This document shows, in pieces, positions 8,140-36,447 of a stretch of DNA of 64,000 nucleotides (within the stretch, counting starts at the first letter, position 1; each line of letters starts with the position of its first letter). The notes below the pieces were generated by a model, which searched no databases, was not told the DNA's origin, and saw only the letters and a program-made list of their open reading frames with translations. A program made the translations under genes and the position numbers. The DNA is from an uncultured Acidobacteriota bacterium (GTDB lineage: Bacteria; Acidobacteriota; Thermoanaerobaculia; UBA5066; Gp7-AA6). Location of the stretch: NCBI GenBank assembly GCA_963815655.1, contig CAWFHK010000001.1:1628903-1692902 (forward strand), written 5' to 3'.

Positions 8140-8566
8140 ATCCGCCCCGGCTCGGGCCCGCCTCCGGCTTTCGGCCGCGGCAGTCGCTTCGCGACCGGGC
8201 GGCCGAGAGAGTTCAAACCACGGACTCGGACTGATGCGACATTGATCCGTGGCGAATACCGAACCCTGGCCGTCGCTTGTCGCTCAGTCGCACAAGACGC
8301 GAGGCAATCGTGGTCGCGTGCCGTGCTCCTTCGCTCACGCTCCTCCGGGAGGCGGTCCCGCCGCCGGGGCTTCACTCGGCATGAACCGGGCTGAGAGCCC
8401 CGGGGCCGGCGGCGTTTCCCGGAGGAGGTGATGGGTGACGAGCATGGAACGCCACGGCCGGCACCACGGTGTTACTGCGAGGAACCCTCAGCGCCGGCCG
8501 GTTCTAACCGTAACGGCCAGCCGGCGCGTGCCGACGCAGGGAAATGCCGACGGCACCAGGGCGAGT
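8140..8566 (+). repeat. Dispersed fold-back element family 1, copy A
   Basis: Aligns over about 300 nt with 12420-12725, e.g. ctcacgctcctccgggaggcgg and gccggcgcgtgccgacgcagggaaatgccgacggc. Confidence 0.85.
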
Positions 8567-8609
8567 CCCTCGCCACTACCGCAATGGGGCAAGACCGCAA
8601 ATGCGGCGC

Positions 8610-8644
8610 AAAAAAAAGCCGGGGAACCGAGCGGTTCCCCGGCT
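8610..8644 (-). terminator. Intrinsic terminator downstream of gdhA
   Basis: Minus strand long GC stem (GCCGGGGAACC...GGTTCCCCGGC) plus T8. Confidence 0.9.
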
Positions 8645-8663
8645 CCGGTTTGCCTGCGGACCG

Positions 8664-10058
8664 TTAGACCAGGCCCTGGTCCATCATCGCGTCGGCGACC
8701 TTCAGGAAGCCGGCGATGTTGGCGCCGTTGACGTAATTGCCCGGGGTGTTGAAGGCGTCGGCGGTCTCGCGGCAGTTGCCGTGAATCGCCTTCATGATCT
8801 TGTGCAGGCGGTCGTCCACCTCTTCGCGAGTCCAGGAGAGGCGCATGCTGTTCTGCGACATCTCCAGTCCCGAAGTCGCGACGCCTCCGGCGTTGGCGGC
8901 CTTGGCCGGCCCATAGAGGATCTTCGCGTCGAGGAACAACCGCACGCCCTCGAGGACCGTGGGCATGTTCGCCCCCTCCGAGACGACGTAGACACCGTTC
9001 TTCAGGAGGTTCGCCGCGTCCTTCGCGTTGATCTCGTTTTGCGTCGCGCTGGGGAACGCGCACTGCGCCTTGTGGTCCCAGATCGGGTTGTACTCGAGCA
9101 TCGGATCGATCGGCGTGTAGACCACGTTCTTGAACTTGTCGGCGTATTCCCGGATCCGGCCCCGGCGGAGGTTCTTCAGCTCCATCACGAACTGCAGCTT
9201 CTCCGACGTGATGCCGGCCTCGTCGTAGATGTACCCGTCGGAATCCGACAGGGTCACGGGCTTCGCGCCGAGCTGCAGCAGCTTCTCGACGGTGTACTGG
9301 GAGACGTTGCCGCTGCCGGAGACGAGGCAGGTCTTCCCTTTCAGCGTCTCGTTCCTCGTGGCGAGCATCTCGGCCGCGAAATACACGGCGCCGTAACCGG
9401 TCGCCTCGGGCCGAATCAGCGAGCCGCCCCAGTTCAGTCCCTTCCCGGTCAGGACGCCGGTGAACTCGTTCTTGAGACGCTTGTACTGGCCGAAGAGATA
9501 GCCGATCTCCCGCCCGCCGACGCCGATGTCCCCGGCCGGCACGTCGGTGTCCGGCCCGATGTGGCGGTAGAGCTCCGTCATGAAGCTCTGGCAGAAGCGC
9601 ATGACCTCGTTGTCGCTCTTCCCCTTCGGATCGAAGTCCGAGCCGCCCTTGCCGCCCCCCATCGGGAGGGTCGTCAGCGAGTTCTTCAACACCTGCTCGA
9701 ACGCGAGGAACTTCAGGATCCCCAGGTTCACCGACGCATGGAAGCGCAGCCCCCCCTTGTACGGGCCGATGGCGCTGTTCATCTCGATCCGGAAGCCGCG
9801 ATTGATGTGGACGCGCCCCTGGTCATCCTGCCAGGGCACTCGAAACATCAGGACGCGCTCGGGCTCGACCAGCCGCTCGAGGATCCGCGCGCCGCGGTAC
9901 TCCGGGCGCCGCTCCAGGACCAGATCGAGCGATTCGACGACCTCCTGCACCGCCTGATGAAACTCCGGCTCGGCCGGATTCTTCGCCTTGAGTTCCCCCA
10001 TCAGATCGCGGACGAACGGTGATGTTTTCACGGTCGGCTCCACCTCGAGTACATTCAT
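8664..10058 (-). CDS. gdhA: NAD(P)-specific glutamate dehydrogenase
   Basis: [61 protein letters not shown] before ATG 10058. Confidence 0.97.
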
Positions 10059-33998: not shown

Positions 33999-34038
33999 AC
34001 GCGAATCCCGATTCCTCTCGGTCCCGCGGGGGCCGCTG

Positions 34039-35967
34039 ATGTCTCTCCGCCAGGACGTCCTTCGAGCGTTCGTGGAGCTCCAGTTGAGGGCGATCGATCC
34101 GGAACCGGCCGCGCTGCTGGACGACCCGGCGGCCGTCGCGACGGACGTCGTGACGTACTTGAACGGCGTTCCGCATCTGGTCGCCGAAGGCTTCGGACTC
34201 GCGCTCGATCAGATCGATCTGAAGGCCCGCACGGCCCTCGGGCACCCCTTCCCGCAACTGGGTCTCGCGGACCGGCGCTCCGCCCTGGACGGCGTCGCCC
34301 GGGACCAGCTCGGGCAGACCCTCCTCACGATGCTGGCCCGCGCGACATGGCTCGTCATCTACTCGCGGGAGCCGGCGCGCGACCGCGTGGGGTTCTCCCG
34401 CTCCCTGGACCTGCCGCCCCCCGCCGACGTTCCTTCGCCGGACGCCGCGAGCCTCCGGCATGTCTACGACGCCTGCGTCGTCGGCTCCGGGGCCGGAGGG
34501 GCCGTCGTGGCGGCGCGGCTGGCCGCCGCCGGGCGGGACGTCCTCCTGATCGACGAGGGGGCCTGGGTCAATCCGAAGTCCTACAGCGCCCGCGACGATC
34601 GGGCGTTGAACCAGCTCTACCGCGACTCGGGGATCCAGCCCGCGCTGCCGGCGCTGGACTACATCCCGCGCCGCCACGGCTTCGGGTTCATGACGGTGCT
34701 CCAGGCCCGCGTCTTCGGCGGCGGGCCCGTCGTGAACAACGCGATCCATCTTCCGATCGCGCGCGAGCGCTGGTCCCGGTGGCGGAGCGACTTTGCCTTC
34801 CCGGTCGAATGGGCGGACCTGGAGGCAGCCCTCGCGCGGGTCGGGAGCGACCTCGGCGTGAGCGCGTCGGAGATGAAGCGCGCGCAGGGCAAGAGGAGCA
34901 CCGCCTTCGAGACCGGCGCCGGCCGGCTCCATCTGCCGGTCCGGGATCTCCCGCTGTCCGTGCTCGACTGCGCGTGCTGCGGAGGCTGCAACGTCGGGTG
35001 CCAGTTCGGCCGGAAGACCGCCGGGCCTCACGGTCCCCGGCCGGCCGGCAAGCCGTCGAGCTACCTCGAGCGGGCCCTCGCGGCCAACTGCGGCATCCGG
35101 CCGGGCCTGCGGGCGGTCAACCTCGAAGCCGACCTCTTCTCGCGGCGCGCGGTCGCGTTGAAGTGCCTGGACCTCGCCGACGGCAAGCGGGAGGTCCGCG
35201 TCAGGGCGCGGCGGTTCGTGATCGCCGCGGGGCCGATCGCGAGCAGCCGGATCCTGCGCGACAGCCTCTTCCAGGTGCTGAGCCCCGTCGGGCGCCACAT
35301 GGCGGCCAACGTCGTCTCCCCCGTGTTCGCCGAGCTGCCCGAGGACATCGAGCCCGCTCGCGACAACCCGGGCATACAGATGTGCGTCTTCGTGGACCAG
35401 GGAGGCCGCCTGCTCGAGTCGTGGTTCCACTATCCGGGCTCCCTCGCGGCCGCGCTCCCGCAGTGGATGGAGGAGCACGCCGGCGTGATGAAGGCCTACA
35501 GGCGGCTCGCCGTCTGCGCCGCCGTCGTCCCGACGGCCAACGGCGGAGAGCTCGGACCGACGAACAACCTCGTCCTCTCCCTTTCGGACGAAGAGATCGC
35601 GCAGATGAAGGAAGGGATGGTGCAGATCGCCGAGGCGTTCTTCGCGGCGGGCGCGTCTCGCGTGTTGCCCGGGACCTCTTTCCCTCTCCAGATCAACGCC
35701 GCCACGAAGGACGCGGACGAGGCGAAGTTCCGGGGCGCCGTCGTCGGGCAGGCCGACCTGACCCTGAGCACGGCGCACGTGCAGGGGGGCAACGCGATCG
35801 GCACGGACGCCCTGCATTCCGTCGTCGCCCCCGGCTTCCACCTCCACGACTTCGACAACGTCTTCGTGGCCGACACGAGCCTCTTCCCCGCCGGCTGCGC
35901 GGTCAACCCGCAGATGACGACGATGGCCCTCGCCCACCTCGCCGCCGATCGCATCCTGTCCGCTTGA
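34039..35967 (+). CDS. GMC family oxidoreductase
   Basis: VVGSGAGG, FGGGPVVN, CACCGGCNVGC, HVQGG, VADTSLFP...VNPQMT. Confidence 0.88.
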   Translation: MSLRQDVLRAFVELQLRAIDPEPAALLDDPAAVATDVVTYLNGVPHLVAEGFGLALDQIDLKARTALGHPFPQLGLADRRSALDGVARDQLGQTLLTMLARATWLVIYSREPARDRVGFSRSLDLPPPADVPSPDAASLRHVYDACVVGSGAGGAVVAARLAAAGRDVLLIDEGAWVNPKSYSARDDRALNQLYRDSGIQPALPALDYIPRRHGFGFMTVLQARVFGGGPVVNNAIHLPIARERWSRWRSDFAFPVEWADLEAALARVGSDLGVSASEMKRAQGKRSTAFETGAGRLHLPVRDLPLSVLDCACCGGCNVGCQFGRKTAGPHGPRPAGKPSSYLERALAANCGIRPGLRAVNLEADLFSRRAVALKCLDLADGKREVRVRARRFVIAAGPIASSRILRDSLFQVLSPVGRHMAANVVSPVFAELPEDIEPARDNPGIQMCVFVDQGGRLLESWFHYPGSLAAALPQWMEEHAGVMKAYRRLAVCAAVVPTANGGELGPTNNLVLSLSDEEIAQMKEGMVQIAEAFFAAGASRVLPGTSFPLQINAATKDADEAKFRGAVVGQADLTLSTAHVQGGNAIGTDALHSVVAPGFHLHDFDNVFVADTSLFPAGCAVNPQMTTMALAHLAADRILSA

Positions 35968-35992
35968 GAGAGCGACGCGCTCGTAGTAATTC

Positions 35993-36447
35993 CTCAACAC
36001 GCTGTTCCCATCAAGACGCTCCTTCTCGGTGCGGCCAGGGCGGCCTGAGCGCACCCGAAACTTCGGCTGACACACCGCACCGGCGTCGGGCCGCCTCCCT
36101 CCGGCGGCACGCTCCGGCAGGCCGCGACGGGAGAACCGGCCGTCGCTCTATCGCGAAGGCGCAGTGGCAGCGCGGCTGCAGGATGTCCTTATGGTGCGCC
36201 TTCGCTCACGGCCATCTCCGGAAGGCGTCCCGCCGCCGGGGCTGAAGCCCGGCTGGATTGGCACGGCGCAGCCTGGAGACGCCAGCGTTGTCCGGCAGCG
36301 GCCCTGTCCGAGGGCACACATCACGGACTCGGGTCAACGATGCGTCCTCTGTGCCCTCGGACCGGAGCGGCGGCGAGGGCTTTCCTCCGTGCGGCCAGGC
36401 CGCCGCGTGCCGCAGAGGGCAACGACGGCGTCTCCAGGCGGATTCTC
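35993..36447 (+). repeat. Dispersed fold-back element family 1, copy D (longest)
   Basis: Contains blocks shared with both C and A/B, e.g. gggccgcctccct, ggagaaccggccgtcgct, cgctcacg, cccgccgccggggct. Confidence 0.88.

Follow-up and report, generated by a model that had tools for sequence, protein, structure and literature searches.

A family of intergenic hairpin-forming repeats, apparently not previously described, is present in soil Acidobacteriota. It is probably a modular family resembling MITEs (transposable elements of the miniature inverted-repeat kind), non-autonomous and moved by a putative transposase acting in trans. The window, i.e., the whole 64 kb stretch of DNA that was analysed, contains five homologous non-coding copies on the plus strand. 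Outside the window, an exact-pattern scan, in which 23 positions are fixed by the search pattern, yielded 73 further copies in seven MAGs, six from Acidobacteriota or Thermoanaerobaculia and one from Gemmatimonadales, giving a total of 78 distinct copies. The best-sampled MAG, CAWFIK (~5.3 Mb), has 43 of them, and the Gemmatimonadales MAG has a single one (L061).

A profile built from the five blocks (nhmmer) gives exactly five plus-strand matches in the window. The remaining matches either have E > 0.04 or are minus-strand self-matches at the positions of the copies, caused by their palindromic build. A degenerate core pattern of 30 nt matches five times, against 0.00 expected from 100 shuffles. 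The five homologous non-coding blocks proposed by a sequence-only reading of this DNA are thus borne out, with B (about 12305-12753), C (19607-19978) and D (35987-36502) being longer than proposed. Pairwise identity is 78-86% between A and B and 83-89% between C and D, and E aligns to the 3′ arm alone (85% identity to B over 81 nt). At the Rfam gathering score, only two tRNAs are matched in the window and nothing over the copies, while at E <= 10 the matches over A-D are at chance level, far below gathering scores. The family has no Pfam, plasmid or phage match either, and literature searches found no published description of it.

Two core types are distinguished, type 1 (A/B/E-like) and type 2 (C/D-like). 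Each full copy, ~380-570 bp in length, consists of two large hairpin domains, D1 and D2, that are imperfect palindromes. D1 occurs in at least three versions, and D2, which all copies have in common, in two subtypes. The window copies have the following features:

8140..8586, plus strand: copy A, type 1 core, with a normal 5′ terminus, after which the 5′ arm carries an insert ('module ii') of ~100 nt
8233-8586, plus strand: profile match of copy A (E = 3e-90)
12305..12753, plus strand: copy B, a complete type 1 element whose core spans about 12362-12729
12395-12744, plus strand: profile match of copy B (E = 3e-96)
12365-12387 and 12505-12527, plus strand: D1 closing strands of copy B
12558-12579 and 12698-12719, plus strand: D2 closing strands of copy B
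12650-12661 and 12675-12686, plus strand: P3 hairpin of copy B
19607..19978, plus strand: copy C, of type 2, bearing an outer terminal inverted repeat at each end (motifs 19614-19631 and 19953-19970)
19637-19938, plus strand: profile match of copy C (E = 1e-67)
32197..32325, plus strand: copy E, a fragment situated between divergent genes that retains the 3′ strand of D2 and the 3′ tail and nothing else
32197-32325, plus strand: profile match of copy E (E = 8e-28)
35987..36502, plus strand: copy D, a complete type 2 element with its left repeat motif at 35992-36009 and its core at 36074-36447
36108-36463, plus strand: profile match of copy D (E = 3.5e-87)
36077-36099 and 36220-36242, plus strand: D1 strands of copy D
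36272-36293 and 36417-36438, plus strand: D2 strands of copy D
36367-36378 and 36395-36406, plus strand: P3 of copy D

The 5′ end and insert of copy A are shared with L031 (blastn 80% across 8140-8582), and copy C has lost the 5′ strand and the interior of D1. The flanking gene contexts are tandem for A, convergent for B, C and D, and divergent for E, as the sequence-only reading had it. Its quoted complementary pairs are also present, i.e., CCCGGAG at 19748 with CTCCGGG at 19907 and GCGTTGCCC at 19761 with GGGCAACGA at 19892 in copy C, CCTGGAG at 36272 with CTCCAGG at 36432 in copy D, and GCGTTTCCC at 8412 with GGGAAATGC at 8539 in copy A, as are the 13-nt arms of the hairpin that it described as added in C and D. 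The REP-like loop GGGCTGAAGCCC is found in 1 of the 78 copies, namely D. The imperfect complementarity noticed between the 5′ and 3′ arms of copy B is confirmed by a single-sequence fold in which these arms pair, and the internal arm competing for the same 3′ arm is found as well.

Pairing was claimed to survive divergence, and this holds for the both-side changes between the subtypes, with the two-domain fold scoring above shuffled and slid controls. In this fold 97.1% of cells are paired, against 91.3% in shuffled alignments (0 of 500 shuffles reach 97.1%), and 13 pairs are changed on both sides, a number reached in 3 of 500 shuffles. In slid controls, 37-52% of the cells pair, and 2-7 pairs are changed on both sides. 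Most of the both-side changes represent a single split between type 1 and type 2. Within the subtypes, compensated variants number 2 (type 1) and 4 (type 2), against 34 and 42 single-sided ones; the pair-breaking variants comprise 10 GU, 5 AC and 19 others in type 1, and 13, 13 and 16 in type 2. Paired columns are 94.5-95.8% identical within subtypes versus 76.5-81.6% for unpaired columns, a difference that is partly circular, as 23 positions are pattern-fixed. By eye, positions that form Watson-Crick pairs in type 2 are seen in the alignment as tandem G.A mismatches in type 1.

The ends of the elements resemble those of mobile DNA. In type 2, the best-sampled subtype, D1 and D2 lie between terminal inverted repeats of ~26-30 bp that are flanked by CTAG on either side. 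An outer 18-nt motif recurs at the two ends of type 2 copies in opposite orientations and is confined to them. The right flank tetramer is CTAG in 11/19 type 2 copies, the others being one-base variants except for ACCG, and the left one is CTAG in 5/16, plus 3/16 in which it is shifted by one base; as CTAG is palindromic, in these copies a flanking CTAG may equally be a target duplication or the end of the repeat. Where flanks deviate from CTAG, the left and right tetramers of the same copy do not match. Copy C has CTAG (19603-19606) on the left and CGAG (19979-19982) on the right. In type 1, terminal inverted repeats are seen by eye in the 'module iii' copies, and copies with a plain 5′ arm have no clear outer repeats. 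Together, the terminal inverted repeats and CTAG flanks indicate a MITE of the cut-and-paste (DDE) type.

The copies are positioned at gene 3′ ends. At 7 of 19 right ends, CTA is the exact stop codon of the convergent gene, and the left ends of L050 and L062 also coincide with a stop codon. The same applies in the window to the left flank of B and the right flank of D: the outer 5′ part of B begins directly after the TAG stop (12302-12304) of an M24 peptidase gene, and the CTAC at 36503-36506 to the right of D contains the TAG stop of a convergent S9 peptidase gene (36503-38761, minus strand). The right end of B, TTAG at 12750-12753, directly precedes the stop of a convergent hydrolase gene. 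Among the intergenic regions that bear an element, 30 of 61 are convergent, compared to 21 of 157 among the remaining regions of this DNA (binomial p = 2e-11); adjacency biases the latter baseline downwards. CTAG itself occurs 11 times in the window versus 189 expected from base composition, a ~17-fold under-representation, and only one of the 11 lies inside a predicted gene. This scarcity fits the pile-up of copies at stop codons and between convergent genes.

These observations can be combined in a mechanism for the MITE-like family. A DDE-type transposase acting in trans would integrate the elements at CTAG or YTAR (Y = C/T, R = A/G). Tolerated targets would mostly be stop codons and short intergenic regions, because CTAG occurs very seldom here and hardly ever within coding sequence, and it is through this confinement that copies would accumulate between convergent genes. 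Hairpin modules would be kept in lineages that are still spreading, which would cause the covariation between subtypes, and single inserted copies would drift, lose arms, flip or recombine. An additional host-side effect is possible, e.g., as a transcription barrier or as a hairpin at transcript ends like REP/ERIC. No transposase with matching ends was seen in the 2 kb to either side of the 73 loci, nor in the window, where the scanned proteins include no transposase.

The closest parallel is with bacterial MITEs that duplicate CTAG/YTAR, such as MITEPsy1 of Pseudomonas syringae, described as inserting at CTAG or YTAA and duplicating its target (PMC3189936). As far as described there, it is likewise non-coding and multi-copy, with terminal inverted repeats, CTAG junctions and no transposase of its own; however, it measures 100 nt and has a known parent IS (PMC3189936), whereas the Acidobacteriota family measures 380-570 nt and its flank duplication is putative. 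The two-domain interior of the Acidobacteriota family is, in contrast to MITEPsy1, better conserved than its ends. D2 in particular is conserved while the termini differ between subfamilies, the reverse of the usual MITE pattern.

This pattern leaves some room, though not much, for the idea that D2 is a functional structured RNA or ssDNA carried in several MITE shells. D2 (~190 nt) folds into a multi-way junction and is common to subfamilies with different termini. Moreover, L062, a full copy orthologous to the locus of copy C, is 87.9% identical to C in D2 and 82-86% in the flanks, and this slow divergence of D2 hints at constraint or concerted evolution. D2 may act for the element itself, e.g., to regulate or guide a transposase, or for the host, e.g., as a barrier at transcript ends that works in either orientation. 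Competition of the internal arm with the 5′ arm for one 3′ arm would provide D2 with two states.

It is unlikely that the repeats are mobile structured ncRNAs, in which D2 or D1-D2 would be transcribed from its own promoter with the 3′ arm pairings acting as a switch. Such an RNA would suit the conservation of D2 across termini and between C and L062, the excess of paired cells and both-side changes over shuffled controls, the higher conservation of paired columns and the G.A mismatches opposite Watson-Crick pairs. However, neither strand of the element is consistently favoured by the fold. The alignment folds have energies of -142 (plus) and -129 (minus) in type 1 and of -176 and -172, respectively, in type 2; GU cells number 100 versus 58 in the former type and 31 versus 82 in the latter; and for the same pairs of the 3′ domain, G-T and A-C cells on the plus strand number 37 versus 18 (type 1) and 35 versus 31 (type 2). 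The concentration of both-side changes in the one split between types, the few compensations within them and the lack of an Rfam match also argue against it, and no promoter-like or terminator-like sites were found inside the elements. Furthermore, individual copies look dispensable, as 11 are split by an IS110 element and several are truncated (C, E, L010, L020, L028 and L063).

The IS110 insertions show that the element serves as an IS110 landing site. Near-identical IS110 elements occupy one fixed D1 site in 11 loci, corresponding to 11 of 32 type 2 copies in CAWFIK, and eight aligned IS110 copies differ at two columns over ~1.49 kb. The insert encodes a DEDD transposase (PF01548 7e-40, PF02371 5.5e-16), which is the only multi-copy protein gene within 2 kb on either side of the 73 loci; against an ncRNA, no recurrent protein partner is found at that distance. 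Comparison with the IS110-bearing CAWFIK copies places the equivalent point in copy D, which is empty in the window:

36203..36211, plus strand: IS110 insertion point equivalent in copy D, CGCTCA^CGG, between 36208 and 36209

Rather improbable is a DNA structural repeat kept by the host, similar to BIME/REP/ERIC and spread mainly by recombination or gene conversion instead of transposition. Located where transcription units end, such repeats would adopt a cruciform or hairpin structure or be bound by a protein. The mosaic build from modules and the location between convergent genes agree with this, as does the finding that different species carry the element in the same intergenic regions, at times flipped or with modules swapped; flips could arise via recombination through the near-palindromic arms. 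In addition, copies are about as similar across genomes (copy C against all type 2 copies, median 88.6%) as within CAWFIK (median 90.7%). On the other hand, the outer inverted repeats, CTAG flanks and stop-codon junctions look like insertion footprints, one copy (L061) resides in a Gemmatimonadales MAG, and the orthologous pairs compared (C vs L053, D vs L041, L038 vs L072) do not agree in orientation, subtype or boundaries. ERIC/IRU, Correia, BOX and RUP are imperfect palindromes as well, ~100-200 nt long and situated in intergenic DNA that is often transcribed; BOX has a modular build, and Correia and RUP are MITEs. They differ from the Acidobacteriota family in host and sequence and are smaller, and they are not known to have two large domains and a core common to subfamilies. 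REP/BIME and REPIN-RAYT systems, as described in PMC3733652 and PMC1525189, share with the family a palindromic, extragenic and mosaic nature, frequent location at gene 3′ ends and a role as targets of IS110-family elements; that such elements target REPs (PMC1525189, PMC11208160) is a further point in favour of a host-kept repeat. However, REP units are given as 20-40 bp (PMC3733652), whereas the units here are hairpin domains of ~180 nt, and REPs lack outer inverted repeats flanked by CTAG; no RAYT was seen among the multi-copy proteins near the loci or in the window.

Mobilisation as a REPIN-like or IS200/IS605-like ssDNA element by an HUH enzyme (Y1/RAYT) that recognises hairpins, the first option of the sequence-only reading, which noted that it would explain the strand bias, is very unlikely; CTAG would then be the cleavage or target tetranucleotide. 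The large conserved hairpins agree with it, and a tetranucleotide shared by the left flank and the right end may also suit an IS608-type scheme. All five window copies do lie on one strand (two-sided chance 1/16), but CAWFIK has 25 minus-strand and 18 plus-strand copies, and adjacent copies on its contigs are on the same strand in 11 and on different strands in 22 of 33 cases; as a test of replication strand these counts are indirect. Neither the strand bias nor the argument drawn from it is supported. The orientation of copies is random: in tandem contexts 16 copies run against and 10 with the flanking genes, and the element is flipped at 4 of 6 orthologous sites. Moreover, the outer ends are mutual inverted repeats instead of two like-oriented hairpins. 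A search for RAYT, TnpA or TnpB found no candidate among the multi-copy proteins near the 73 loci or the window proteins, and the window proteins scanned have no Y1, TnpB or IscB domain. HEARO/omega-RNA elements of IscB/TnpB and their ORF-less derivatives are structured, multi-copy and mobile, with a length of a few hundred nt. The Acidobacteriota family is similarly structured, multi-copy, non-coding and a few hundred nt long, but it has no Rfam match, no IscB/TnpB in the window, no strand bias and no recurrent protein at the 73 loci except IS110.

Decayed fragments of one protein-coding gene can practically be dismissed, for although long open frames run across the elements, given the high-GC DNA, and type 1 has an ATG at about 8431 preceded by GGAGG, none of the eight open frames within elements matches Pfam (E <= 0.1), copies differ by many 1-nt indels and a codon-usage gene finder calls no gene there, so that the non-coding status claimed earlier stands. 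The frame 19084-19611, beside copy C, has weak sub-threshold Pfam matches only.

For the MITE-like family, the placement of copies suggests that great scarcity of the target word, CTAG, could limit where such repeats settle, leaving them stop codons and the ends of convergent genes. Soil Acidobacteriota are a large uncultured group with almost no described repeat families. Knowing this one can reduce false ORF calls across elements and be of use in delimiting intergenic regions, and the family may explain some assembly breaks. Outside Proteobacteria, it also offers an IS110-family recombinase a conserved target present in multiple copies, and its many natural target variants are material for bridge-RNA targeting studies. 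If the D2 core works as an RNA, the interest of the family would rise, and, with this core carried in several shells, the Acidobacteriota repeats would belong to a class of mobile structured non-coding elements that is new.

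The repeat occurs five times in the window, always on the plus strand:

8140..8586, plus strand: copy A (type 1 core), between two minus-strand genes
12305..12753, plus strand: copy B (type 1), between convergent genes
19607..19978, plus strand: copy C (type 2 core), between convergent genes
32197..32325, plus strand: copy E (type 1), between divergent genes, 3′ arm only
35987..36502, plus strand: copy D (type 2), between convergent genes

The homology of these blocks, proposed in the sequence-only reading, was borne out by a profile built from the block alignment, which gave five plus-strand matches (E 3e-96 to 8e-28). 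The remaining nhmmer matches in the window are minus-strand self-matches at the same places, or have E > 0.04. Likewise, five window matches were obtained with a degenerate 30-nt core pattern, against an expectation of 0.00. A is closest to B, and C to D. The complementary motif pairs quoted in that reading lie where it had placed them, the gene contexts are as it described them (Pfam and codon-usage gene calls), and B and D, on either strand, fold better than shuffled sequences (z −3.1 to −5.4, single-sequence folds). A codon-usage scorer was used for the gene calls, as two finders based on third-codon-position GC had missed real genes.

The consensus fold, derived from the 33 full-length copies of alignment A4, consists of two large hairpin domains. 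D1 forms by pairing of the 5′ arm to a middle segment, and D2 by pairing of an internal arm to the 3′ arm, with further hairpins enclosed. In this fold of 66 pairs, 97.1% of the cells are paired compared to 91.3% in shuffled alignments, none of which (0/500) scored as high, and sliding the partners by 1–3 columns lowers the value to 37–52%. The compensatory changes claimed earlier were recovered as well: 13 pairs changed on both sides, a count matched in 3 of 500 shuffles, with 2–7 such pairs in the slid controls. The sequences also allow the rod fold that had been proposed, with the 5′ and 3′ arms paired to each other (97.6% of cells paired). Double-sided changes are absent from its long-range helices, and its main helix is invariant in 11 of 12 pairs, so this fold is unsupported beyond sequence conservation. 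The copies are built as a mosaic, with D2 present in all of them and D1 existing in at least three versions. The 5′ arm of copy A contains roughly 100 nt of inserted sequence, which is also found in L031, one of the loci in related genomes.

One exact-pattern scan of species-representative genomes identified 73 loci in seven MAGs, labeled Acidobacteriota (five), Thermoanaerobaculia (one) and Gemmatimonadales (one). Including the window, there are 78 distinct copies, 29 of type 1 (A, B, E-like) and 49 of type 2 (C, D-like), and the family is surely larger. Conservation within the 30-nt block is an artefact, since retrieval required the pattern. The window genome is related to the MAGs CAWFIK and CAVUIX, with orthologous flanks that are 82–88% identical. 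A lone type 1 copy (L061) lies in the Gemmatimonadales MAG, on contig CAVYSW010000010.1, thus in another phylum; it could reflect horizontal transfer or a mis-binned contig.

As had been supposed, the repeat corresponds to no Rfam family. At the gathering score, the window contains two tRNAs and nothing else; A/B, C and D gave chance-level matches alone at E ≤ 10, and release 15 holds no such family. The two tRNA genes lie side by side at 2262-2424 on the minus strand. Blastn in ‘distant’ mode gave no match for B among plasmids or for D among phages, and a literature search, supplementary material aside, yielded no description of such a repeat family. Descent from a coding gene, which would have spoken against the earlier proposal, was not seen: Pfam searches on open frames in and next to the elements were null except for two weak sub-threshold matches of frame 19084-19611, which lies beside copy C. 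Copy C is separated from a DUF2911 gene by about 390 nt (19218-19606), and a 175-aa open frame between the two has weak sub-threshold Pfam matches only. Positions 19429-19599 are 93% identical to L062, a locus orthologous to C, and missing from another, L053. Pfam detected no transposase among the other window proteins, and in an all-against-all blastp, IS110 was the only protein recurring near the loci.

The window contains other repeats as well:

10293-10379, 14964-15050 and 15245-15331, and L010 (a repeat-bearing locus) 3936-3998: second, smaller family of repeats, each roughly 87 nt long, that fold into a strong hairpin (−51.8 kcal/mol) and lie upstream of gene starts
14858-14918 and 15069-15200: 23-nt tandem array of about five units, three identical, in a divergent intergenic region between two copies of the 87-nt hairpin
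2608-2642, 3774-3869 and 16969-17013: runs of heptamer repeats

A family 2 glycosyltransferase gene (2760-3770) is flanked by two inverted heptamer arrays that are 88% complementary. At 38784-41099, a virginiamycin B lyase-like propeller gene is internally repetitive, with periods of 702 nt and about 126–132 nt. The region 51977-59163 has a lower GC content (0.60–0.64) and carries toxin-antitoxin and defence-type genes, i.e., two PIN genes, Fic, ParE, a type I restriction R fragment and a DarTG-like pair of DarT and an adjoining Macro-domain gene.

The large fold-back elements are found most often between convergent genes. When IS110-bearing loci are left out, the 61 intergenic regions with an element comprise 30 convergent, 23 tandem and 8 divergent ones, compared to 21 convergent among 157 other regions of the same DNA (p = 2e-11), a baseline that is biased low because the neighbor of a convergent region cannot itself be convergent. 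The strand bias claimed from the window did not hold. In CAWFIK, the best-sampled MAG, 25 of 43 copies are on the minus and 18 on the plus strand, and adjacent copies on a contig share a strand in 11 cases and differ in 22; in tandem contexts, the element is oriented opposite to the genes in 16 cases and like them in 10. The family as a whole thus does not share the single-strand arrangement of the window, which has a probability of 1/16 by chance.

Type 2 copies are bounded by outer inverted repeats of about 26–30 bp. An 18-nt outer motif, inverted between the two sides, flanks type 2 copies exclusively, and no solo outer repeats were found away from them. Outside the right end, 11 of 19 copies have the tetramer CTAG; outside the left end, 5 of 16 have it and a further 3 have it displaced by one base. 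The other flank tetramers are mostly one-base variants. In 7/19 copies, the CTA at the right end serves as the stop codon for a convergent gene, and two left ends are at stops as well. In the window, the right flank of D contains the stop of an S9 peptidase gene, and B starts directly after the TAG of an M24 peptidase gene. Judged by eye, CAVUIX-like type 1 copies have outer repeats that differ from these and likewise end in YTAG. CTAG itself is scarce, with 11 occurrences in the window versus 189 expected, one of them inside predicted genes.

At 11 CAWFIK loci, a near-identical insert of about 1.49 kb occupies one fixed D1 point of a type 2 repeat:

L027, 2245-3753, minus strand: IS110 insert; also in L003, L008, L011, L014, L019, L024, L041, L049, L057 and L073

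Its open frame encodes IS110 DEDD transposase domains. Eight aligned IS110 copies show two differing columns, while the flanking element halves are clearly more variable; the median identity of CAWFIK type 2 copies is 90.7% in the 3′ part. About 250 nt of non-coding DNA precede the transposase gene, and this candidate stretch might be the source of a bridge RNA. REPs are known targets of IS110-family elements (PMC1525189, PMC11208160, PMC11187229, PMC12288879). The window copies are not interrupted by IS110; several type 2 copies, among them C, are truncated within about 25 nt of the IS110 site.

Taken together, we consider it fairly probable that the family consists of modular repeats, resembling MITEs (miniature inverted-repeat transposable elements), that target CTAG. 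A mobile structured RNA remains a rival. Neither strand is consistently favored by single-sequence folds, alignment folds or GU versus AC counts. Within types 1 and 2, respectively, 2 and 4 variant types are compensated and 34 and 42 single-sided, and the GU:AC ratios are 10:5 and 13:13. A scan found no promoter-like or terminator-like sites inside the elements, and the one good terminator (8615-8646, minus strand) is that of a glutamate dehydrogenase gene. Identity is 94.5–95.8% in paired and 76.5–81.6% in unpaired columns, a partly circular comparison; this conservation and the D2 domain common to subfamilies with differing ends argue against a purely neutral view. A structural repeat kept by the host is a further rival. 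HUH-type mobilisation, invoked earlier to explain the strand bias that did not hold for the family, is the least likely of these rivals.

The repeat can be compared at orthologous sites in six pairs of loci with common flanking genes:

C and L062: same type, same orientation
C and L053: type 2 versus type 1, opposite orientation
D and L041: same type, opposite orientation
L038 and L072: same D1 version, opposite orientation, different boundaries
L007 and L065: both type 1, different D1 versions, opposite orientation (judged by gene order and strand only)
L031 and L066: both type 1, same orientation (judged by gene order and strand only)

In D2, C matches its orthologue L062 at 87.9% identity, no better than it matches unrelated copies (median 88.6%, best 93.5%). 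These pairs indicate that the same regions are occupied across species while orientation and modules change. Elements inserting again and again where targets are scarce could produce this pattern, as could inversion and conversion via the near-palindromic arms.
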